Below the pieces are notes generated by a model that did no database searches, was not told the DNA's origin, and saw only the letters and a list, made by a program, of their open reading frames with translations. Made by a program: the position numbers and the translations under genes. From NCBI GenBank assembly GCA_030613565.1, contig JAUWLS010000001.1:27355-91354 (forward strand): a DNA stretch of 64,000 nt, in the 5' to 3' direction. The first letter of the stretch is position 1. Each line of letters opens with the position of its first letter. This stretch comes from Candidatus Shapirobacteria bacterium (GTDB lineage Bacteria; Patescibacteriota; Microgenomatia; UBA12405; JAUWLS01). This document shows, piece after piece, positions 5,998-49,277 of this stretch.

Positions 5998-6618
5998 ATG
6001 AAACCTGTTGGAACAATCCTAAAACAATCTCGCCAAAGTTTGGGAATTAGTCTCGAAAAAGTCAGTAAAGAGACTAAAATTCCACTAAAAATACTCAAAA
6101 ACCTTGAGAAAAACAAACTCCAATCCCTCCCTCAAGAACCCTACTGCTCTCTTTATGTGAAAGATTATGCCCTCTTTTTGTCCCTTTCTCCTCAGAGAAT
6201 GGTTGCTATTTGTCGCCGTGATCTTGAAGATCTAAAATCAACCTCCCCCCTCTCCACTTCTTCTGAACTGACCGTTACCCCAAAACTTACTGTTGCTGTT
6301 TTGATTCTTGCCACCTTCCTTCTTTTTGCCTCCTATCTTTTTTATCAATACAGTAAGTTCCAACGTCCCCCTTCTCTTGATATCGATTGGCCCACCACTG
6401 AGTCTGTTGTTCAGGAAGAATTAAGAGTAGAAGGAACAACCGACCCTCAAAACGTTGTTAGAGTTAATCAAAAGCCGATAATGGTTGATCCTGAAGGTAG
6501 TTTTTCCACCACTGTCAAACTTTCTCCTGGAGCCAACACTATAAAAGTTGAAGCCACCTCTTTAAATAAAAAAACAACTACCGAAGAAAAAGTAATTGGC
6601 TTCACCTCAACACCTTGA
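5998..6618 (+). CDS. RodZ-like membrane protein (N-terminal XRE-type HTH, single TM, extracellular C-domain)
   Basis: HTH region LKQSRQSLGISLEKVSKETKIP followed by a TM segment, matching RodZ architecture. Confidence 0.5.
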   Translation: MKPVGTILKQSRQSLGISLEKVSKETKIPLKILKNLEKNKLQSLPQEPYCSLYVKDYALFLSLSPQRMVAICRRDLEDLKSTSPLSTSSELTVTPKLTVAVLILATFLLFASYLFYQYSKFQRPPSLDIDWPTTESVVQEELRVEGTTDPQNVVRVNQKPIMVDPEGSFSTTVKLSPGANTIKVEATSLNKKTTTEEKVIGFTSTP

Positions 6619-7204: not shown

Positions 7205-8983
7205 ATGCAAGCCCGAGACTTAAAGGATAAATATATCTCTTTTTTCAAATCCAAAAACCATTCTGAAATTCCTTCCTATCCCATTGTTCCCGAAAACGAT
7301 CGCTCTGCTCTTTTCATAAGTGCTGGAATGCATCCTTTAGTTCCTTATCTTCTCGGTCAACCTCATCCTCAAGGGAAAAGATTAGTCTCTATCCAAGAGT
7401 GTTTAAGAACTGGAGATATTGAAGAAACTGGAGATACTACTCACCACACCTGGTTTGAAATGTTGGGCAATTGGTCTTTAGGTGATTACTTTAAAGACGA
7501 ATCCATTGCTTTAAGTTACGAATTTCTTACCAAAATCTTAAATATTGACCCTTCTCTTCTTCACATTACCTGCTTTGAAGGAAATAAAGATGCCCCCAAA
7601 GACGAAGTCTCTCAGAAAGCCTGGTTGAGCCTTGGTATCAAAAAGGACCATATCCACTTTCTACCCAAAAAAGACAACTGGTGGGGTCCTGCTGGAACCA
7701 CTGGACCCTGTGGACCTGATACTGAGATTTTTGTTGATGTTTTCCCTTCACTTGCTCAAGAAGACTTTGTTGCCGGTAACTTGCGTGGTCGTTACATAGA
7801 GATCTGGAACAACGTCTTCATGCAATATAACTTAGATGAAAAAGGAAACTATCAAAACCTTTCTCAAAAAAACGTTGATACCGGAATGGGGGTAGAAAGA
7901 ACAATCACTGTCCTCTCTGGTCTTACCGACAACTACCAAAGCACTATCTGGAAACCGATCATTCAAAAAATTGAAGATCAAACTAGCCTCCCTTATAAAA
8001 CCAACGAGTCTTCCATGCGTATCATCGCCGACCATCTTCGCTCTGCTGTTTTTGTCCTCGCCGATGAAATCGAACCTTCTCCTAAAGAAGCGGGTTATGT
8101 ACTAAGAAGACTAATCAGAAGAGCCATTGTTCAAGCCAAAAAGTTGGGACTTACTAAAAACTTTACCTCCAGCCTTGCCCAAACCATCATCGACAATAAA
8201 GACAACTATGCTGGAGATTACCCTGAGCTAGAAAGAAACCATGACTTTATCTTAAAAAGCCTAGACGACGAAGAAAATCGTTTCCGAGTAACCCTAGACA
8301 AAGGCTTAAAAGAAATCTCTCGCCTCATTGATAAAAAACAACTTACCGGTCTTAATGCTTTCAATATCTACCAGAGCCACGGCTTTCCTCTAGAGATGAT
8401 TGTCGAAGAAGCCCAAAAAGCAAACCATTCTTTAGACAAAAACTTTCAAAAAGACTTCAAAAACGCAAAAGAAGGGCACATCAAGCTTTCTCAAACTGCC
8501 GCCAAAGGTAAATTTGCTGGTGGCCTTGCTGGTGATGATCCAAAAATTCTTGCCTATCACACCACCACTCATCTGCTTCACGCTGCCCTAAGAGAAATTC
8601 TTGGAGATCACGTCAGTCAATCTGGTAGTAATATCACCAAAGAAAGACTTCGCTTTGATTTTACTCATCCCCAAAAACTAACTGACGATGAAATTAAAAA
8701 AATTGAAGATCAAGTAAACAAACACATCAGTTCTTCTCTTCCTATTACTCAAGAAACCATGACTTACGAAGAATCTCAAAAAAAAGGAATTATTTCTTTC
8801 TTTAAAGACCGCTATCCTCAGAAAGTAACTGCCTATTTTATTGGAGACCCCAAAAACCCCATCTCTGCCGAGTTATGTATGGGTCCTCATGTCGAAAATA
8901 CTAAAGACCTTGGAAAGTTTTCTATTCAAAAAGAAGAGAGCTCAAGCTCTGGCAAACGTCGCCTCTACGCTCTCTTATCTTAA
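7205..8983 (+). CDS. alaS: Alanyl-tRNA synthetase, short form (catalytic, tRNA-recognition and editing domains; no C-Ala domain)
   Basis: FKDESI.., WFEMLGNWSLGDYFK, and editing-site HTTTHLLHAAL. Confidence 0.85.
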   Translation: MQARDLKDKYISFFKSKNHSEIPSYPIVPENDRSALFISAGMHPLVPYLLGQPHPQGKRLVSIQECLRTGDIEETGDTTHHTWFEMLGNWSLGDYFKDESIALSYEFLTKILNIDPSLLHITCFEGNKDAPKDEVSQKAWLSLGIKKDHIHFLPKKDNWWGPAGTTGPCGPDTEIFVDVFPSLAQEDFVAGNLRGRYIEIWNNVFMQYNLDEKGNYQNLSQKNVDTGMGVERTITVLSGLTDNYQSTIWKPIIQKIEDQTSLPYKTNESSMRIIADHLRSAVFVLADEIEPSPKEAGYVLRRLIRRAIVQAKKLGLTKNFTSSLAQTIIDNKDNYAGDYPELERNHDFILKSLDDEENRFRVTLDKGLKEISRLIDKKQLTGLNAFNIYQSHGFPLEMIVEEAQKANHSLDKNFQKDFKNAKEGHIKLSQTAAKGKFAGGLAGDDPKILAYHTTTHLLHAALREILGDHVSQSGSNITKERLRFDFTHPQKLTDDEIKKIEDQVNKHISSSLPITQETMTYEESQKKGIISFFKDRYPQKVTAYFIGDPKNPISAELCMGPHVENTKDLGKFSIQKEESSSSGKRRLYALLS

Positions 8984-9072: not shown

Positions 9073-11304
9073 ATGGAATCACAAAATAAAGATTTTTGGC
9101 TAATAGTCATTGAGGAAAAAGAGATAATTGTCAGCCTGGTCTCTCGTCCAGAAGGTAAACTTCAGGTCCGTGGCATAGGAGAAAAACAAATTTGGTCTGG
9201 AACTGATGAGAAAGAACTTATCTCAGCTGTCGACATCTCCCTAAACACCTGTTCTGAAATTTGCCACTTATCAGAGGATCAGGAACCTGACAGTGTCGCC
9301 TTCATCATTTCCCCTTTCTGGGTAGATGAAGAAGGAGAAATCATTTCTTCCAAAGCCGAACTTCTAAAAAAGCTCTGTACTCAGTTTGATTTTAAGCCCC
9401 TGGGTTTTATCATCGACGATGAGGCCATTGCTCAAGATTCTGATCAAAAAGGAAGTATTTCAAACTCCTTTATTCTTATTCATCTTTCTGCCACTGAATT
9501 TAGAATCTCTCTTATTCACTTGGGAAAAATAAAAGCCCGTGCTAAATATACCCACAGCGGTGACTTAAGTCCAAAAGAACTAGAAGAAGCTATCTCTAGT
9601 CTAGAAACTCAAGTCACTCTTCCTCCTCAAATGATTTTCTGGGGTAAAACTAGTCCCACTCTTGAAGACCAAATGATCAATTATCCCTGGACAGGAAAAA
9701 GGGGTTCTGTTGGATTCCTGCACTTTCCAGAAATCAAACTGATTGATGACCAAGCCCTCTTTTCTACCTTCTCTCAAGTTGTTACTCAAGAACTAGGGGA
9801 GCTTCCCAAACCTCAGGTGGAAGAAGAATCCAAATCCAAAGAAAAAAAAGAGCCAAAAGAAGAAGTTGGTAAAAAAGAATTTAAAACTGATAAGGTCCAA
9901 GAACCAACCCCACCCGCCACTTCCGAAGAAGATGACTTTGGTTTCATTGCAACCGATATTGCCAAGTTCCCTCCTGCCAAAGATCTTCCTTCTGAAAAGA
10001 TTAAAAAAGAATTGGTGCCAGGTACCCCCCTTGTCATAGATGAAATTAGCCCTGTTCCAACTCAGCCCAGTCTTTTAGAAACTGACCCCCTTGCCTCTAC
10101 TGATCCAGCTCCCCCTTCAAAACCTAAAAGGAAATTTTCCTTCAAGCTCCCTAAACTTAAACTTCCTCGTCTCCCTCTTCTTTCTTTCTTAAAAAAGAAA
10201 CCCGCCCTTTTGATTCTCTTTATAGTACTTCCCTTGGTTGGTCTCGTTCTCTCTTGGTACTTTCTTCCCAAAGTAAACATTGTTCTCTATGTAAAACCCG
10301 AACCTCTAGAGTTCACCACCAGCGCCACTTTTGATCCTGACGCTCAGTCTGTAGACAAAGAAAATCTAGTCATTCCTGTAAAACAACTCTCTTTTTCCAT
10401 AACTGAAACTCAAGAAGTTCTTTCAACCGGAGAACTAACCATTGGTGAAAAATCCAAAGGAGAAGTAAAGATTCAAAATCGTACTGACGAGAGAGTAACT
10501 CTTACTAAAGGCACTGTTATAAGTACTGAATCCGGGCTTTCTTTCACTCTTACTTCCGAAGTCTCTGTTGCCAGCAAAACTCCCGACTTCGAATTAGGGA
10601 CAGACCTGTGGGGAGAAACTAAAGCCATGCTTCAAGCCACCCAAATTGGTGCTGCCAGTAACCTTGCTCAAAACACTCGTCTCACTATTAAGGATTACAC
10701 CCAATCTCAATTTATTGTTACTGCTACTGAATCTTTCACTGGAGGTTATGCCGAAACTGTTCAAGCTGTCAGTAAAGAAGACCATCAGGAATTAAAAGCT
10801 CGTCTTATCTCTGCTATGGAAGAAAAACTCCCCCAAATTCTTCCTGAAAAAACCTCTCCTCAAGATCTTTTGCTTCAAAACTCTACTGAAACCGAAGTGG
10901 AAGACATTGAATATTCCCGAGAGGTAGGGGAGAAAGCCCAGTCGGTTTCTGCTACTGCCACCCTGAATGTCACTCTTCAACTTCTCGATCAAGAAACCCA
11001 ACAACAAGTCATCGATGCCTTCTTGAGCCCCACCATCTCTTCCGACCTCACCATTAACCCCGACAGTATTAGCATTACTGTTTCAGAAGATGAGGTCTCT
11101 ATTTCCGCCAGTGCCATCCCTCAACTCGATGCCGAGTCCATTAAGTCCGACCTTCTAGGTCTTTCTGAATCCAAAGCCGAGTCTCTTCTTCAATCTCTTC
11201 CTCGAGTTTACCGTTATACTACAGCCTTTAGTCCTGATCTCCCTCCACCTTTAAAAACCATGCCCCACTCTCCCAAAAACATTAGTCTCGATATCCAATA
11301 TTAA
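9073..11304 (+). CDS. Hypothetical bitopic membrane protein (about 370-aa N-domain, KE-rich linker, TM, about 350-aa Ser/Thr-rich exodomain); paralog of 23370..24947
   Basis: Central TM PALLILFIVLPLVGLVLSWYFL. N-terminal FWLIVIEEKEIIVSLVS resembles TIVWVQKDSVSIFLLGK of the paralog. Its stop overlaps the sortase start. Confidence 0.6.
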   Translation: MESQNKDFWLIVIEEKEIIVSLVSRPEGKLQVRGIGEKQIWSGTDEKELISAVDISLNTCSEICHLSEDQEPDSVAFIISPFWVDEEGEIISSKAELLKKLCTQFDFKPLGFIIDDEAIAQDSDQKGSISNSFILIHLSATEFRISLIHLGKIKARAKYTHSGDLSPKELEEAISSLETQVTLPPQMIFWGKTSPTLEDQMINYPWTGKRGSVGFLHFPEIKLIDDQALFSTFSQVVTQELGELPKPQVEEESKSKEKKEPKEEVGKKEFKTDKVQEPTPPATSEEDDFGFIATDIAKFPPAKDLPSEKIKKELVPGTPLVIDEISPVPTQPSLLETDPLASTDPAPPSKPKRKFSFKLPKLKLPRLPLLSFLKKKPALLILFIVLPLVGLVLSWYFLPKVNIVLYVKPEPLEFTTSATFDPDAQSVDKENLVIPVKQLSFSITETQEVLSTGELTIGEKSKGEVKIQNRTDERVTLTKGTVISTESGLSFTLTSEVSVASKTPDFELGTDLWGETKAMLQATQIGAASNLAQNTRLTIKDYTQSQFIVTATESFTGGYAETVQAVSKEDHQELKARLISAMEEKLPQILPEKTSPQDLLLQNSTETEVEDIEYSREVGEKAQSVSATATLNVTLQLLDQETQQQVIDAFLSPTISSDLTINPDSISITVSEDEVSISASAIPQLDAESIKSDLLGLSESKAESLLQSLPRVYRYTTAFSPDLPPPLKTMPHSPKNISLDIQY

Positions 11305-12053
11305 TGTCCTATCTCTACGTAAAAACAACTAAAAAATCCCGCCCCCAAGTTTTAAACAGAAAAGGAAAGAAACTTCTTTCCCTTACTCTTCTTCTTTTTG
11401 GACTCTTTCTTTTGGGCTCTGCAGTTTATCCAATTTTAAGTTACCAACTTTCTTATTCCTCAAAATTTTCTTTAATTCTAGATCCCCGTTCAGCTCAGTC
11501 TTTCAACCAAAAACTTCAGAGAGGATCAATTGATGTTTCGGCCAAAGAGATTGACCCAAAGGACTACTCTCTTATCTCTTCCTGGTTTGAAACCAATCCG
11601 GATACCAATCCCCAAGAAACCAGAAGAACCACTAATGTCATTTCTCAATATTCTCTAGCCATCCCTAAACTGGACATTAATCATGCCGCCGTCCGAACCG
11701 ACAACCAAGATCTTAAAAAATCTCTCATCCAGTATCCCAACACCGCTCCTCCCGGACAACTGGGAAACACTGTTGTTTTTGGTCACTCCGTCCTTCCTCA
11801 ATTTTATGATCCCCAAAACTACTACACTATTTTCTCCACCCTCTATACTCTAAAACTCGCTGACCCCATCTATATCACCTACGACGGCATTACCTACACC
11901 TATCGAATTGAAGAAATCTTTGAAGTTCTCCCTACTGATCTCTCTGTTTTAGAACAACGCTTCGACAAGCGCTCTCTTACTCTTATCACCTGCACTCCCC
12001 CTGGAACCTACTTAAAACGTCTCATAATTAAGGCTCGTATAGTAGACTACTAA
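11304..12053 (+). CDS. Sortase (transpeptidase) family protein
   Basis: N-terminal signal anchor, catalytic His in VVFGHS, and TLITCTP (TLxTC) catalytic Cys motif. Confidence 0.8.
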   Translation: MSYLYVKTTKKSRPQVLNRKGKKLLSLTLLLFGLFLLGSAVYPILSYQLSYSSKFSLILDPRSAQSFNQKLQRGSIDVSAKEIDPKDYSLISSWFETNPDTNPQETRRTTNVISQYSLAIPKLDINHAAVRTDNQDLKKSLIQYPNTAPPGQLGNTVVFGHSVLPQFYDPQNYYTIFSTLYTLKLADPIYITYDGITYTYRIEEIFEVLPTDLSVLEQRFDKRSLTLITCTPPGTYLKRLIIKARIVDY

Positions 12054-12475: not shown

Positions 12476-12676
12476 ATGTTTAAAAACGTAATTTCTCCCA
12501 TCCAAGCTTGGTTACTTTCCCAAGGTCGCTGTGTCGGCTGTGGTAATCCTTTAAAAAAGGGTAAATCAGAGAATCGACAAGATGGTACCAAAAAGGTAAC
12601 CTGCAAATGTGGTCGCATCTTCATCCATGATCAAAAATCAAAAACACACCGCCGTGCCCTCTTCGAAGAAATCTAG
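12476..12676 (+). CDS. Small zinc-ribbon protein (CxxC..CxC)
   Basis: CVGCGNPL...CKCGRIF. Overlaps the mltG start, so it is uncertain. Confidence 0.3.
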   Translation: MFKNVISPIQAWLLSQGRCVGCGNPLKKGKSENRQDGTKKVTCKCGRIFIHDQKSKTHRRALFEEI

Positions 12677-22343: not shown

Positions 22344-22823
22344 ATGCCTACTTTTAATCAACTAGTCAGAAAAAAGAGAAAAACTCGCTCTAAGAAGTTA
22401 AGAACAGCTGCTCTAAGAGACAGCCTCAACAACTTAAAGAGTAAGATAACTGTCCAAAACAGTCCCTACAAGAGGGGAGTGGTCACTATGGTTAAAACCA
22501 TGACTCCTAAAAAACCTCACTCTGCTTTAAGAAAAGTAGCCAAGGTTCGTCTTTCTAATAAAAAAGTCATTACCGCCTATATCCCTGGAATCGGCCACAA
22601 CATTTCCGAACACGGAATTGTTTTAGTTAAGGGTGGCCGTGTCCGAGACTTACCAGGTGTTCGTTATAAAATCGTTCGTGGACCTTATGACGCAGGTTCT
22701 GTTGTTGGTCGCCAGCAATCTAGAAGTAAATATGGCACCAAAAAAGACGGTAAAGTTGATGCATCAAAACCGGCCACTGACACCAAAGCTCCTGCTGCTC
22801 CTGCTGCCACCCCTGCCGCTTAA
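22344..22823 (+). CDS. rpsL: 30S ribosomal protein S12 with an approximately 30-aa Ala/Pro-rich C-terminal extension
   Basis: PTFNQLVRK...[15 protein letters not shown]. Confidence 0.9.
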
Positions 22824-22840: not shown

Positions 22841-23320
22841 ATGTCTAGAAGAGGAAGAGTAAAAAAAAGAATAATCCTACCAGATCCTATTTATAGATCA
22901 GTCCTTATCAGCCGACTTATTAACCGCTGTATGATAGATGGTAAAAAGTCAGTTACTCAAAAACAAGTTTATAAAGCTTTTGAACTGGTAAAAAAGGAAA
23001 GTAAAAAAGATCCTTTAATTATCTTCGAGCAAGCTCTTGATAATATTAAGCCAAAAGTCGAAGTTAAAACACGACGTATTGGTGGTGCTTCTTATCAAGT
23101 TCCTATTCCTGTAAGTGGTGGTCGTCAAACCTCTCTTGCTATTCGATGGTTGGTCGCCTTTGCCCGTCAAAAGTCCAACAGTCAATTCCACAGCTTTGCC
23201 GAAAAACTATCCACTGAGATATTAGATGCTCAAAAGAATGAGGGTTCAACCATTCAAAGACGTCAGGAAATAGAAAAGATTGCTGAAGCCAACAAAGCAT
23301 TTGCTCATCTTCGTTGGTAA
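22841..23320 (+). CDS. rpsG: 30S ribosomal protein S7
   Basis: Typical S7 sequence and position after rpsL. Confidence 0.9.
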   Translation: MSRRGRVKKRIILPDPIYRSVLISRLINRCMIDGKKSVTQKQVYKAFELVKKESKKDPLIIFEQALDNIKPKVEVKTRRIGGASYQVPIPVSGGRQTSLAIRWLVAFARQKSNSQFHSFAEKLSTEILDAQKNEGSTIQRRQEIEKIAEANKAFAHLRW

Positions 23321-23369: not shown

Positions 23370-24947
23370 ATGCTATTGTCTGGGAAAAAAACTATTGTCT
23401 GGGTTCAAAAAGATTCTGTCTCTATCTTTCTTCTTGGTAAAAAACCAAAAAAGTCTTCTTTTGACCTAAAACTTTTTACCTCAAAAACTTCAAAAAGCCT
23501 CCTTCCTCTTTCTAGCTTTTTAAAAGAAAACAAAGTCAAACAGGTTTCTGTTCTTGTCAACGAGCCTCTCTCTGGTCAGCAATCTTTTGTCTACGATGCT
23601 CCAGAAGACCAAATAAGTCGCCAAGAATTAATCGGTATTGCCTCTCATTCCTTTTCTTTTGAGATTGATAACCCTTACCTTGCTTACGATTTTCATAAAA
23701 AAGCAGATAAAACCGTAATTCGTGTCACAGGCATTGATCAAAAGAAACTGGAACCAGTTTTAAAAAACCTTCAAGATCTCGGAATTAAGGTCTTGGGTTT
23801 TGACCTCGTTTCTTCTTCTCTAGCAAAGATCTTTTCTCGTTTTCATCCAAAACCCTTTATCCTCCTTCACTCCCTGGACAAAAAAAAGACCCTCGTTCTT
23901 ATTATTCACAATTCCAAGGTTTATCATTCAGAACTTAAAAACACTACCTCCTTAAAAATCCAATCCATCGTAAATAAGGTTAAGATGTTTTTCGATACTG
24001 GACCTTTAGATAAAATCTTCTTCCAAAGTGGTTGTTTACCTGACCTAACTAAAGATAGTAAACTGCATATAGTCAATTTTAATAGCGAAGACATTACTCG
24101 AAAATTAAAGTTAACCAAAGACCTACCTTTGCCAGTATTAGGTACTACTCTAAAACAAAAAAAACAGTTAATAAAAATTAAACCTAAAACAATGACCTTA
24201 GATGAAAAACCAAAAAAAGAAAAAGAAGAAGTGGTCAAACTTACTGACACTGAGAAAAAACCTCAAATAAAAGAAGAAATTGAACCAAAACCAGAAAAAG
24301 AACTTGAAGTAAAAGAAGATTCTAAAGTGGAAGAGATTAAAGAAAAGCCCCAAGAACAGGAGAAAGATGACTCTGAGGAAGCTTTCAAAATCCTCGCCGC
24401 TTCTCAGGTTGAGAAATCACCTAAGGGCAAGATCCTTATCCTTGCTGTGGTTTCTGCTCTAGTTACAGTCGCCATTCTCACTATCTTTGTTTTAAAACCA
24501 TTTTCTAAAGACACCACAGATTCAACAGAAGAACCCCTTGTTCAAGAAGTTCCTACTCAGGCCCCGTCACCAACTGCCACTCCCGCACCTGAAGTTTTTT
24601 ACGAAGCCTCGGTTAAAGTTCAAAACGGAACTTCTATTGCTGGCCTTGCAGGTACCTTAAAATCAGAAATCACCGATCTTGATTTCGAAGAAGTGACTGC
24701 CACCAATGCGCCAGAAAAAACTACTAAAAACACCATTTCCTGCAAGGAGTCCTACCTTGATACTGCCAATTCTTTGAAAGAAAGCTTAGAAAACATTTTC
24801 CCTGCCAGTATATCTGCTGATCTTGAAGAAGATGATGATTACGATATCATTATCACTATAGGAAAAGATCTTGAAGAAGAAGAGACAGTGGAAGAAGAAG
24901 TAGAGGAGGAAGAGACTGATGACGAGGAAGAATCTACCCAAGAATAA
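23370..24947 (+). CDS. Hypothetical bitopic membrane protein inserted between rpsG and fusA; paralog of 9073..11304; acidic C-terminus
   Basis: Same architecture as 9073..11304: N-domain, KE-rich linker, TM ILILAVVSALVTVAILTIFVL, exodomain ending in an EEEETVEEEVEEEE run. Confidence 0.55.
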   Translation: MLLSGKKTIVWVQKDSVSIFLLGKKPKKSSFDLKLFTSKTSKSLLPLSSFLKENKVKQVSVLVNEPLSGQQSFVYDAPEDQISRQELIGIASHSFSFEIDNPYLAYDFHKKADKTVIRVTGIDQKKLEPVLKNLQDLGIKVLGFDLVSSSLAKIFSRFHPKPFILLHSLDKKKTLVLIIHNSKVYHSELKNTTSLKIQSIVNKVKMFFDTGPLDKIFFQSGCLPDLTKDSKLHIVNFNSEDITRKLKLTKDLPLPVLGTTLKQKKQLIKIKPKTMTLDEKPKKEKEEVVKLTDTEKKPQIKEEIEPKPEKELEVKEDSKVEEIKEKPQEQEKDDSEEAFKILAASQVEKSPKGKILILAVVSALVTVAILTIFVLKPFSKDTTDSTEEPLVQEVPTQAPSPTATPAPEVFYEASVKVQNGTSIAGLAGTLKSEITDLDFEEVTATNAPEKTTKNTISCKESYLDTANSLKESLENIFPASISADLEEDDDYDIIITIGKDLEEEETVEEEVEEEETDDEEESTQE

Positions 24948-25191
24948 AAGCGAAGAGGATACTGTCGTTGTTTTAAAACAACTCAACTATTCTCTTACTA
25001 AACTAGTAAAAAAGAACACTCCTCAGTACAAGTTTCTTTTAGGAATCTTTTCAGGATTAGGAACAGTCTTTGGACTTACTGTTGTTCTCACCTTTATTCT
25101 CTACATCCTTACCAGACTTTCTTTTGTTCCTGTTCTTGGAGATGTGGCCACTCAGATCGTGCGAATCGTTCAGTCTAATCTGGGTAACTAA
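24919..25191 (+). CDS. Small hypothetical membrane protein
   Basis: 90-aa ORF with one or two TM segments. Confidence 0.35.
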   Translation: MTRKNLPKNKSEEDTVVVLKQLNYSLTKLVKKNTPQYKFLLGIFSGLGTVFGLTVVLTFILYILTRLSFVPVLGDVATQIVRIVQSNLGN

Positions 25192-25270: not shown

Positions 25271-25298
25271 CTCGTGCCTAAAAGACGGGCGGTTTTTT
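25271..25298 (+). terminator. Weak intrinsic terminator or attenuator-like hairpin set upstream of fusA
   Basis: CUCGU-loop-ACGGG stem followed by U6; alternative overlapping hairpins at 25253-25286. Confidence 0.3.
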
Positions 25299-25311
25299 AA
25301 ATCAAAAACAC

Positions 25312-27408
25312 ATGGCTCAAGATAAACCTAAAACAAACCGAGATGTCTCTATGGAGAAGGTTAGAAACATTGGAATTATCGCCCACATTGATGCTGGTAA
25401 AACCACCACCACCGAAAGAGTTCTTTTCTACACCGGAAAAACCCACAAGATAGGTGATATTGACGATGGAACCACCGTTACTGACTGGATGGATCAAGAA
25501 AGAGAGCGAGGAATCACCATTGTTTCCGCTGCCATTACCACTTTCTGGAAGGGCTATCGCTTTAACATCATTGACACCCCCGGACACGTTGATTTTACCG
25601 CTGAAGTTGAAAGATCACTTCGTGTTCTTGATGGAGGAATTATGGTCTTCGATGCCGAAGAAGGAGTTCAAGCCCAATCAGAAACTGTTTGGCGACAGGC
25701 CAATAAGTATGAAGTTCCTCGTCTTGCTTTCATAAACAAGATGGACAAAATTGGAGCCGACTTTGAAAATACTTTAGAAATGATCAGAGACCGACTTCAG
25801 GCTACTCCTGCCGTTATAACTATTCCAATCGGAAAAGAACATGCTTTCAAAGGTTGTATCGATCTTTTAAATGAAAAAATGTACATCTGGGACAAAGATG
25901 AAATAGGAGTTGAATATACTACCACCGACGTCACTGACGAATACAAAGAAGAAGTAAAAAAATGGAGAGATATTCTTGTTGAGCAAGTTTGTTCTGAAGA
26001 CGATGTCCTTCTTGAAAAATTCCTAAATGACCAGGTGCCATCCATTGAGGAACTTAAAAAAGTACTAAGAAAAGCCACTATCGATAAAAAACTATTCCCC
26101 GCCTACTGTGGCTCTTCTTTGAGAAACAAAGGTGTTCAACCTGTTTTAGATGGTGTTGTTGATTTCCTTCCTTCCCCAATCGACCTTCCTCCTGTGGCTG
26201 GACTTGACCCCAAAACCGAAGAAAAATTAGAGAGAAAACCCCAAAACTCAGAGCCTCTTTCTGCTCTTCTTTTTAAGGTTCAAACTGATCCTCACGTTGG
26301 AAAGCTTTCTTATCTTCGTATTTATTCTGGAGTTTTAAAATCTGGATCTTCTGTTCAAAACGTAACTAAACGAAAGTCAGAAAGAATTGGTCGTCTTCTT
26401 TTAATGCACGCTGATAAAAGAGAAGCTATTGATGAAGCATATGCCGGAGAAATCGTTGCCTGTATTGGTCTTAAAGAGTCTTCAACTGGAGACACTCTTT
26501 GTGATCCTACTGCTCCCATCTCTCTTGAAAACATCTCTTTCCCTGATCCTGTTATTCATCTTTCTATTGAACCAGCTACCAAAGAAGATCAAGAAAAAAT
26601 GGGTCAAGCCCTCCATCGTCTTTCTGAAGAAGATCCTACTTTCTCAGTTAAAGTTGATCATGAAACTGGACAAACCATTATCTCTGGTATGGGAGAACTC
26701 CATCTTGAGATTTTAGCTGAAAGACTTAAAAGAGAATTTAAAGTCAACGCTACTACTGGTAAGCCCCAAGTTGCTTATCGAGAAACTATTAGAAACGAAG
26801 CTGAAGGTGAAGGTAAATACATTCGCCAAACCGGAGGTAGGGGACAATTTGGTCACTGTTTACTAAGAATCGAACCTAAGCCCAGAGGAGAAGGTTTTGA
26901 ATTCGTCTCTGAAATCAGAGGTGCTTCTATTCCTTCAAACTTCATTCCTTCCATTGAAAAAGGTGTTAAAGAAGCCTTAGAAAAGGGTGTTATTTCTTCC
27001 TATCCTATGGTAGATATTAAAGTTGCTGTTTACGACGGATCTTACCACGAAGTCGATTCTTCTGACATGGCTTTCAAAATTGCTGGATCCATGGGACTTC
27101 AAGCTGCAGTCAAAAAAGCCAATCCTACCCTCGTCGAGCCTATTATGAAGATCGAAGTTACTACCCCTTCTGACTTTTTAGGAGCAGTTATGGGAGACCT
27201 TTCTTCAAGAAGAGCTCAGATTCTTGGCACTGAAGATAGAAATTCTTATACTGTCATAAACGCTTCTATTCCTCTTGCTGAAGCCAGAGGATATGCTACT
27301 GTTATAAGGAGCCTTACTCAAGGCAGGGGTAATTTTTACATGGAACCCAGTCATTATGATGAAGTTCCCACCAATATTATGAAAGATTTAGTTAATTCTG
27401 AAAAATAA
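25312..27408 (+). CDS. fusA: Elongation factor G
   Basis: AHIDAGKTTTTER, DTPGHVDF. Confidence 0.95.
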   Translation: MAQDKPKTNRDVSMEKVRNIGIIAHIDAGKTTTTERVLFYTGKTHKIGDIDDGTTVTDWMDQERERGITIVSAAITTFWKGYRFNIIDTPGHVDFTAEVERSLRVLDGGIMVFDAEEGVQAQSETVWRQANKYEVPRLAFINKMDKIGADFENTLEMIRDRLQATPAVITIPIGKEHAFKGCIDLLNEKMYIWDKDEIGVEYTTTDVTDEYKEEVKKWRDILVEQVCSEDDVLLEKFLNDQVPSIEELKKVLRKATIDKKLFPAYCGSSLRNKGVQPVLDGVVDFLPSPIDLPPVAGLDPKTEEKLERKPQNSEPLSALLFKVQTDPHVGKLSYLRIYSGVLKSGSSVQNVTKRKSERIGRLLLMHADKREAIDEAYAGEIVACIGLKESSTGDTLCDPTAPISLENISFPDPVIHLSIEPATKEDQEKMGQALHRLSEEDPTFSVKVDHETGQTIISGMGELHLEILAERLKREFKVNATTGKPQVAYRETIRNEAEGEGKYIRQTGGRGQFGHCLLRIEPKPRGEGFEFVSEIRGASIPSNFIPSIEKGVKEALEKGVISSYPMVDIKVAVYDGSYHEVDSSDMAFKIAGSMGLQAAVKKANPTLVEPIMKIEVTTPSDFLGAVMGDLSSRRAQILGTEDRNSYTVINASIPLAEARGYATVIRSLTQGRGNFYMEPSHYDEVPTNIMKDLVNSEK

Positions 27409-47989: not shown

Positions 47990-48502
47990 TTATTTATTAT
48001 CTTCCTCTTCCCAAGCCAACCCGCCTTCCCAGTAAAGTGATTTTTTAGAAACCAGTGCCTCTTTTAATTTCCTAAGGTCCTGAAGTTTTTTCTCTTCCAT
48101 TTTCAAAGAATTCTTATCAAGATCAAAAAACCCAAAATCAATTACTTCATCTTCGTCTATTTTTATCTTTTTAATTAGTTCTTCTGGTAATTCTCTTATC
48201 CCAAAGAAAAACTGTAAACTTTCTCCTCTGTAAGAACTATTCATCACATATTTAACTCCTAAAAAGACAGGATTCTCTATTACCAAACCGACTTCTTCCC
48301 TAACTTCTCTTTTTACTGCCTCCAGTGGTGACTCTTTCTTATTCACCATTCCACCGGCAAGACTCCACTCTTTTTTGTAACTTGCCTTCACCAGAAGCAA
48401 TTCTCCCTTTTTATTTAAAATAACCATACCTGAAGCACACCTTTTTCGAGGCAACTGAGCAAAATATTTTTCAGGCTCTATCCAGTTTTTAACCACGGCC
48501 AA
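47990..48502 (-). CDS. NUDIX hydrolase
   Basis: NUDIX box GGMVNKKESPLEAVKREVREEVGL. Confidence 0.85.
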   Translation of the reverse strand: MAVVKNWIEPEKYFAQLPRKRCASGMVILNKKGELLLVKASYKKEWSLAGGMVNKKESPLEAVKREVREEVGLVIENPVFLGVKYVMNSSYRGESLQFFFGIRELPEELIKKIKIDEDEVIDFGFFDLDKNSLKMEEKKLQDLRKLKEALVSKKSLYWEGGLAWEEEDNK

Positions 48503-48575: not shown

Positions 48576-49277
48576 ATGAGTACACAAATAGATATTCACC
48601 CAGTTCAGTCGTCAATTTTATGTCGACTCCTTTTTACAAAAGAAGGTCGTTTTAAAGATCTTAATACCCTTAATCTCAGTACTGACCATTTTAGTTTCCA
48701 CATCAAACAACTAACCGACTGGGGACTAGTAAAAAAACTAGAAAAAGGAAAATATACCCTTACTCCAAAAGGTAAAGAATTTGCCAACCGTTTTGATACC
48801 GACAAAAACGAAGTTGAAAGACAAGCTAAGGTCGCAGTTTTACTTGTTGCTGTAAAAACAATAAAGGGAAAAAAGAAATATTTAATCCAACAAAGACTTA
48901 AACAACCTTATTTTGGATTCTGGGGTTTTGTCACCGGAAAAATTGCCTGGGGAGAAATTACAAAAGAGGCCGCATCAAGAGAGTTGAATGAAGAAACGGG
49001 ACTCAAAGGAAATATAAAACTAGTCGGTGTGAAACACAAAATAGATTACACCCAAGATCAAAAACTCCTAGAAGATAAATATTTTTTCGTATTCAAGGTA
49101 ACTAATTTAAAAGGAAAACTAAAAGAAAAATTCGAAGGAGGAAGAAACAAATGGCTAACTGAAGAAGAAATTCTCAAACTTAAAAACCTTTTTGACGGGG
49201 CAGAAGAAAGTATGAACTTCATTAAAAAACCCATTTTCAAGTTCAGTGAAATCAAGTATCTTGTAAAAAAATACTAA
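48576..49277 (+). CDS. Winged-helix DNA-binding domain fused to a NUDIX hydrolase domain (NrtR-like, inverted domain order)
   Basis: N-terminal wHTH (..HFSFHIKQLTDWGLVKKLEKGKYTLTPKG) and a C-terminal NUDIX box GKIAWGEITKEAASRELNEETGL. Confidence 0.75.
   Translation: MSTQIDIHPVQSSILCRLLFTKEGRFKDLNTLNLSTDHFSFHIKQLTDWGLVKKLEKGKYTLTPKGKEFANRFDTDKNEVERQAKVAVLLVAVKTIKGKKKYLIQQRLKQPYFGFWGFVTGKIAWGEITKEAASRELNEETGLKGNIKLVGVKHKIDYTQDQKLLEDKYFFVFKVTNLKGKLKEKFEGGRNKWLTEEEILKLKNLFDGAEESMNFIKKPIFKFSEIKYLVKKY

Follow-up and report, generated by a model that had tools for sequence, protein, structure and literature searches.

What do two large single-span membrane proteins, one encoded beside a sortase gene and the other beside rpsG, have to do with each other? 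Both lie in a 64,000-nucleotide (nt) stretch of a Candidatus Shapirobacteria genome (assembly GCA_030613565.1, contig JAUWLS010000001.1, positions 27,355 to 91,354 of the forward strand), which we call the window. An earlier note on this DNA had taken the two, here named proteins A and B, for a paralogous pair. We found that A and B, as judged from their sequences, are two separate envelope protein families and not demonstrable paralogs, and that the near-obligate module formed by A and the sortase is a stronger finding than the pairing of A with B. The overall picture that we favour, with a probability of roughly one half, is that A is a transmembrane scaffold organising the sortase and that B is a LytR_C protein resembling VirR and Cei.

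The genes of A and the sortase overlap in the sequence TAATG, where one base is common to the TAA stop codon of A and the ATG of the sortase, just as the earlier note had it; sortase translation is thus probably coupled to that of A. A metagenome scan returned 212 relatives of A, from which 80 loci were kept, 70 of them with room for a sortase downstream. A sortase lay directly 3' of A in 69/70 loci, mostly with an offset of -3 to +5 nt between the A stop and the sortase start, and alaS lay directly 5' of A in 56/57. The modal gene order in the metagenome loci was ftsK > RodZ-like HTH_25 gene > alaS > A > sortase > ruvX > mltG. We also found the arrangement alaS-A-sortase-(ruvX)-mltG in three relatives of A with 24-30% identity, while in a fourth (26% identity) the sortase again adjoined A. 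The A-sortase-ruvX segment was recovered in an independent assembly of run SRR12623517 as well. More than 70 contigs share this fixed housekeeping neighbourhood; it contained no phage genes, and no pilB, pilC, pilN, pilO or pilin genes were found in its conserved part. In the window, the RodZ-like gene (5998-6618) stands directly 3' of ftsK and encodes HTH_25 together with a C-terminal Glucodextran_B-like domain.

The sortase matched Pfam Sortase (PF04203) with an E value of 1e-25, and its catalytic His161, Cys230 (LITC, TLxTC-like) and Arg239 are each at least 85% conserved in 63 sortases. It shares with classes A-F the sortase fold, the His/Cys/Arg residues, an N-terminal membrane anchor and, in relatives, LPxxG-type substrates. 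It differs from them in its cytoplasmic MSYxYxK tail, in its obligate upstream partner with an ASKHA (actin-like) domain and a transmembrane (TM) helix, and in reaching no NCBIfam class cutoff: the best match, class C, gave 62.5 bits vs 160, and classes D, E and F were also below. The N-terminus reads M-S-Y-[LI]-Y-[LV]-K, with Y5 and K7 at least 85% conserved in the same 63 sortases, and the motif Y-x-[YF]-x-K was present in 55/66 unique A-sortase pairs. We know of no precedent for a sortase with a tail of the MSYxYxK type or with an ASKHA-TM partner. A family of sortases is near-ubiquitous in Microgenomates (PMC6744442).

Candidate substrates were found in eight related loci, each encoding a secreted protein of ~160 amino acids (aa) 3-4 kb from the A-sortase pair. 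This protein has a signal peptide followed by a beta-rich domain, and its C-terminal end is made up of LP[AT][ATV]G, then a hydrophobic stretch, then a basic tail. From sequence and position these proteins are likely substrates of the A-linked sortases, suggesting conventional substrates for the sortases of this lineage. No homolog of the ~160-aa protein was found in the window.

Hydropathy predicted a single TM each in A (~aa 367-401), B (~aa 350-379) and the sortase (aa 22-47), and because basic residues flank it on the N-terminal side, all three proteins were assigned an N-in orientation. A common plan of linker and one TM, as previously described for A and B, was thus borne out, the linker being Lys/Pro/Glu-rich in A and Lys/Glu-rich in B. 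Other parts of that description were revised. The cytoplasmic N-domains had been put at ~350 aa, but the folded part covers only ~240 aa in A and ~265 aa in B, with the remainder belonging to the disordered linker; and instead of generic Ser/Thr/acidic exodomains, A has a folded Baseplate_J-like module and B a different one, LytR_C.

A was modelled by AlphaFold2 (AF2) with a 13-sequence family alignment. The mean predicted local distance difference test score (pLDDT) was 77.8, with ~90 for aa 1-242 and aa 400-743 and below 50 for aa 243-368. In this model the N-domain is built of two tandem RNase-H-like βββ-α-β-α-β-α subdomains, the arrangement that defines the ASKHA fold, and has no 1B, 1C or 2B insertions between the core elements. 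Foldseek searches with the model gave ASKHA and phi812 baseplate matches with E values of 1e-8 to 1e-6. The top matches of the N-domain were Ppx/GppA (8e-9), then PilM (1.5e-7) and FtsA (1.2e-6). Since Ppx/GppA comes first, a preference for FtsA or PilM is not robust, and we assigned the N-domain as a minimal ASKHA core. The suggestion in the earlier note that PilM, FtsA or another actin-like fold be checked was upheld for A at the level of the fold but not of the family: A had no Pfam match to FtsA or SHS2_FTSA at E<=1, none to PilM_2 or T2SS-L, and none in NCBIfam. No Pfam or NCBIfam family was matched by the N-domain of either A or B, PDB sequence and profile searches returned nothing for these two domains, and in literature searches we came across no account of either family.

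We looked at the nucleotide-binding loops of A, with their positions set from secondary structure. The DxG (phosphate-1) and DxGGG/T (phosphate-2) loops are absent. At the sites where ATP-binding ASKHA members carry DxG and DxGGG, A has a β1-β2 hairpin that reads FWLIVIEEKEIIVSL and a β1'-β2' hairpin that reads SFILIHLSATEFRISL, and vestigial Gly residues at these hairpins were kept in distant family members only. The N-domain is most likely a non-catalytic scaffold with a degenerate nucleotide site. In the linker, G290 and F291 are invariant, [FLIM]GF was found in 68/70 members of the family, and a basic juxtamembrane LPK..KLP motif is conserved. The exodomain matched Baseplate_J (PF04865) above the curated cutoff, as 7/13 members do, and in a PDB profile search the family profile matched TRI-2 (8v3w) with an E value of 1.3e-5. 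The likeness to the Baseplate J, gp47 and TRI-2 wedge proteins of contractile phages and tailocins is limited to ~130-160 residues; unlike them, A is membrane-anchored, fused to a cytoplasmic domain and encoded in a housekeeping context that is devoid of tail genes in 70+ loci. The combination of TM, ASKHA domain and baseplate module extends across the family down to 22% identity.

Distant members of the A family (P0009-P0013, L136, L144, L152, L158, L159) have an extra N-terminal peptide before the first strand, which is not present in A of the window. It reads M-x-LPF[FL]-KK... or MDLK-x-ILPKKK, and several members carrying it are paired with sortases without the MSYxYxK tail.

For B, the exodomain matched LytR_C with an E value of 5e-9 (37.3 bits vs a cutoff of 22.2), as did 26/26 family members, and a profile of B matched PDB 2m5y (E 9e-5). 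No LCP catalytic domain was detected in these 26 members. VirR and Cei of M. tuberculosis are LytR_C solo proteins that keep wall integrity, and VirR binds LCP ligases via LytR_C, localises to the nascent wall and affects peptidoglycan remodelling (PMC11832169). B is like them in being membrane-anchored, with a LytR_C exodomain and no LCP catalytic domain, and unlike them in its ~265-aa folded cytoplasmic domain, its long Lys/Glu linker and its fixed place after rpsG. As far as we know, VirR and Cei have neither a folded cytoplasmic domain nor a long linker of this kind.

Word-index searches with B, whole or N-domain, returned only 3 close relatives and 2 fragments; the family was found by an exhaustive hmmsearch with the N-domain over 1.84 billion representatives, which gave 33 proteins (50% clustering), mostly 435-544 aa long. 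We found B in no fewer than 80 species-level genomes, most of which carry the label Shapirobacteria, Woesebacteria or Microgenomates, and it follows rpoC-rpsL-rpsG in 79/80, with a gap of mostly 20-150 nt. Retention of rpsG->B at this level argues for selection. In the window B is placed between rpsG (22841..23320) and fusA (25312..27408), and a 90-aa DUF5665 gene beside it, which the earlier note passed over, occupies the same interval. This compact order rpsG-B-DUF5665-fusA was found only in a close clade consisting of the window and L001-L003. The earlier note had B interrupting rpsG-fusA; this holds for these four loci, showing that the interruption is not limited to one assembly, but the conserved linkage is rpsG->B, as fusA lies 1.3-6.9 kb 3' of B in relatives where it was seen. 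In two loci examined (L062 9085-12509; L012 8446-9456), rmlB, rmlC and rmlD (dTDP-rhamnose) and an FAD amine-oxidase-like gene stand between B and fusA, and the rml genes tie the locus to wall-glycopolymer synthesis. DUF5665 was rejected as a general partner of B, as it follows B in this close clade alone. The rpsG-B gap in the window is 49 nt with no predicted terminator. A predicted hairpin between the DUF5665 gene and fusA would, if functional, end an rpsL-rpsG-B-DUF5665 transcript before fusA. As promoter and terminator scans gave site counts not above shuffled expectation, the terminator prediction is weak evidence.

We then compared A and B directly. The best BLASTP E value was 1.5. With hhalign, the probability was 0.55% for A (13 sequences) vs B (3 sequences), 4% for A vs B (26 sequences), 11% for the N-domains alone and 16% for 67 A vs 81 B sequences (score 29.8, E 0.0016). 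No A-family member was among the 33 proteins from the exhaustive search with the B N-domain, and the exodomains are unrelated. One register, A aa 70/91-160 vs B aa 99/123-191, nevertheless recurred in every comparison and became longer with deeper profiles. None of 400 shuffles in blocks of 10 or 20 columns (means 14-21) reached its score of 28.4 to 29.8, nor did the reversed control, and the matching segment corresponds to α2-β5-α3-β1'-β2'-β3' of the actin-like core of A. Among the top 60 non-self matches of sub-threshold hidden Markov model (HMM) searches, 18 and 11 came from the other family vs ~2.4 expected, although the relatedness of family members inflates the P-values. In the B-HMM direction the register was consistent.

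Could A and B still be true paralogs, with N-domains from a duplicated ASKHA-TM ancestor and with swapped exodomains on matched envelope or division scaffolds? The shared overall architecture, the reproducible local similarity of the N-domain profiles, the reciprocal enrichment and the co-occurrence of the two genes within single genomes (seen for this window and for contig JAQWEN010000001.1) speak for this. We think it rather unlikely, given the BLASTP and hhalign values, the failure of the exhaustive search to reach A, the unrelated exodomains, the non-independence of the family members behind the enrichment and a similarity that spans only ~1/3 of the domain. The residual signal would fit a possible ancient kinship at the fold level and is not a demonstrated duplication. 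For the N-domain of B itself we lean slightly towards an ASKHA-like fold; the PDB search miss carries no weight here, because the structurally confident ASKHA domain of A was equally invisible to the same searches. The term 'paralogous pair' should accordingly be dropped or lowered to 'possibly anciently related actin-fold scaffolds'. What stands of the earlier proposal of a lineage-specific envelope component is that both are conserved, lineage-specific envelope proteins; their paralogy is not supported.

How might the two proteins work? By analogy, A may span the membrane as a scaffold of GspL or PilM-PilN design, in which a cytoplasmic actin-like domain, a single TM and an extracytoplasmic domain are combined. 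GspL has the actin-like domain fused to the other parts, and PilM instead docks the PilN N-terminal peptide; both are non-enzymatic scaffolds across the membrane, and PilM is among the top structural matches of A. This is a likeness of design, not family membership. A would link an interaction in the cytoplasm with the membrane's outer face and organise sortase-dependent anchoring of LPxxG surface proteins, perhaps at sites of wall growth, as suggested by the ftsK, rodZ-like and mltG neighbourhood. Its baseplate-like exodomain could be a platform for oligomerisation or wall contact. The ASKHA domain might dock the N-terminal peptide of the sortase in the manner of PilM-PilN and FtsA-FtsN, and the structural matches of A include such peptide complexes (PilM:PilN1-12, 5eou; PilM-PilN, 2ych; FtsA with FtsN 1-29, 7q6i). 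We regard docking of the sortase tail as unlikely. B probably acts like VirR and Cei, as a non-catalytic partner of LCP wall-glycopolymer ligation and peptidoglycan remodelling, with its cytoplasmic domain as the inside connector.

Several observations weigh against this picture. A has no 1C subdomain, by which FtsA binds FtsN. About 6 sortases genuinely have no N-tail motif and are still paired with an intact A, and no covariation was seen between the tail motif and the N-domain score of A. Two scans found no credible C-terminal sorting signal in any open reading frame (ORF) of the window, A and B included, in agreement with the earlier note. Lastly, the spacing of the two genes is the basis for predicting that B and rpsG are co-transcribed, and position is likewise what the earlier note's idea of co-expression with the translation genes goes by.

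A scaffold partnered with the sortase is not the only role that can be proposed for A. It could instead anchor the divisome or elongasome, as a substitute for FtsA or an addition to it, and bind FtsZ or another filament, with a TM in place of the amphipathic helix, the adjacent sortase merely placing anchoring at the septum. The sequence of folded domain, long flexible linker and membrane anchor mirrors FtsA, the conserved neighbours include ftsK, the RodZ-like HTH_25 gene and mltG, and the linker has its conserved FGF motif. We consider this distinctly unlikely: besides showing no Pfam FtsA or SHS2 match, A is without the 1C (SHS2) subdomain and the phosphate-binding loops of FtsA, has a true TM and a 340-aa exodomain, and is linked most tightly to the sortase and not to ftsZ or ftsQ.

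Alternatively, A might be part of a PilM-PilN/GspL-type assembly platform of a pilus or secretion machine, whose fibre subunits the sortase would anchor or polymerise. GspL and PilM-PilN fusions have the same bitopic actin-TM-exodomain plan, the best NCBIfam match of the sortase is to the pilus-type class C (though far below its cutoff), and small LPxxG proteins are encoded nearby in relatives. A role of this kind is very unlikely, as A has the 1A/2A core only, an exodomain that is Baseplate_J-like and not of the ferredoxin-like PilN/PilO type, and no PilM_2 or T2SS-L match, and as its partner is a sortase in a conserved neighbourhood without pilus or secretion genes. We give almost no credence to A being a remnant of a prophage or tailocin (a Baseplate J gene) or a sortase substrate, with B a neutral insertion: A does adjoin the sortase, but the synteny, the fusion of the baseplate module to TM and ASKHA domain throughout the family and a C-terminus without LPxxG, hydrophobic stretch and basic tail led us to reject remnant and substrate alike, and rpsG->B in 79/80 genomes is at odds with neutrality.

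We return to A as a transmembrane organiser of the sortase and B as a VirR/Cei-like protein. Bitopic actin-fold scaffolds and LytR_C solo proteins are known kinds; what is new is that A is partnered with a sortase, that the sortase tail is conserved and that B has a fixed place after rpsG. An extended version, which we hold to be improbable, would make A the first known dedicated sortase partner that reaches the cytoplasm, capturing the MSYxYxK tail and oligomerising through its exodomain into a 'sortase platform' that ties anchoring to wall growth and division; B would be an anciently related actin-fold scaffold for glycopolymer attachment of the LytR_C/LCP type, and its place after rpsG would keep its dosage in step with the growth rate.

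The candidate phyla radiation (CPR, Patescibacteria) makes up a large share of bacterial diversity, and its cell envelopes are almost unstudied. The A-sortase pair offers a testable handle on where surface proteins are anchored in very small CPR cells, and A illustrates how core envelope biology can draw on both an ASKHA pseudo-ATPase scaffold and a structural domain of phages. With rpsG->B, an envelope gene stands clearly embedded in the str cluster of ribosomal-protein genes, which is highly conserved otherwise; the arrangement might be used to mark the lineage and to explore a coupling of wall homeostasis to growth rate.

Coordinates of the features discussed (window positions unless a locus is named)
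Feature	Position	Strand	Basis or remark
Protein A, bitopic, ASKHA-TM-baseplate-J-like, sortase partner	9073..11304	+	ORF, 743 aa; 13 full-length and 212 metagenome relatives
A cytoplasmic minimal ASKHA (actin-like) domain, aa 1-242	9073..9798	+	two tandem βββ-α-β-α-β-α units
A disordered Lys/Pro/Glu-rich linker, aa 243-368	9799..10176	+	pLDDT <50
A FGF motif in linker, aa 289-291	9937-9945	+	
A transmembrane helix, aa 377-397	10201..10263	+	AF2 helix; hydropathy; N-in by positive-inside rule
A extracytoplasmic domain, aa 400-743	10270..11301	+	Baseplate_J-like beta module, then alpha/beta modules
A Baseplate_J region, aa 459-584	10447-10824	+	Pfam
Sortase, probably translationally coupled to A	11304..12053	+	ORF, 249 aa; TAATG overlap; TM anchor aa 22-47, N-in
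Sortase N-terminal cytoplasmic peptide MSYLYVK (Y-x-[YF]-x-K)	11304..11324	+	conservation
Protein B, bitopic with LytR_C exodomain, directly 3' of rpsG	23370..24947	+	ORF, 525 aa; family; synteny
B cytoplasmic alpha/beta N-domain, aa 1-265	23370..24164	+	possibly ASKHA-like
B segment aa 99-191, aligning weakly with A aa 70-160 (nt 9280-9552)	23664..23942	+	hhalign
B Lys/Glu-rich linker, aa 266-350	24165..24419	+	Lys 24%, Glu 24%; low pLDDT; length varies in family
B transmembrane helix, aa 353-374	24426..24491	+	AF2 helix; hydropathy aa 350-379
B extracytoplasmic LytR_C domain, aa 413-500, then acidic tail	24606..24869	+	Pfam PF13399
DUF5665 small membrane protein gene	24919..25191	+	Pfam PF18910, E 1.7e-12; overlaps B 3' end by 29 nt
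Terminator-like hairpin and T-run between DUF5665 gene and fusA	25275..25300	+	consensus scan
~160-aa LPxxG proteins (likely sortase substrates)	L088 10670-11158, L099 10412-10909, L103 10843-11322, L105 8215-8694	-	also in L091, L100, L101, L107

The window has a low GC content (~39%), and its genes include rpoB-rpoC-rpsL-rpsG...fusA-tuf and S10/spc ribosomal genes; the nearest named relatives are metagenome-assembled genomes of Candidatus Shapirobacteria. The alanyl-tRNA synthetase (AlaRS) gene (7205-8983) encodes 592 aa, with 587-623 aa in relatives. Typical bacterial AlaRS is far longer, and the window enzyme probably has no C-terminal domain. Between ruvX and mltG, a 66-aa ORF of CxxC...CxC zinc-ribbon-like type (12476-12676) is strongly conserved at the same place in L004 and L006. 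S12, encoded by rpsL (22344-22823), is 159 aa long with a C-terminal extension rich in Ala/Pro/Lys; extensions were also present in the close relatives L001 and L003, their sequences differing. Three separate NUDIX hydrolase genes were found within 6 kb (47990-48502 on the minus strand, 48576-49277 and 53587-54039), one of them fused to a winged-helix domain. On the strand encoding nearly all genes, GC skew was below 0 in every 2-kb bin of the window (1-64000; range -0.01 to -0.35); a paper on a Microgenomates genome reportedly describes an unusual strand composition disparity.

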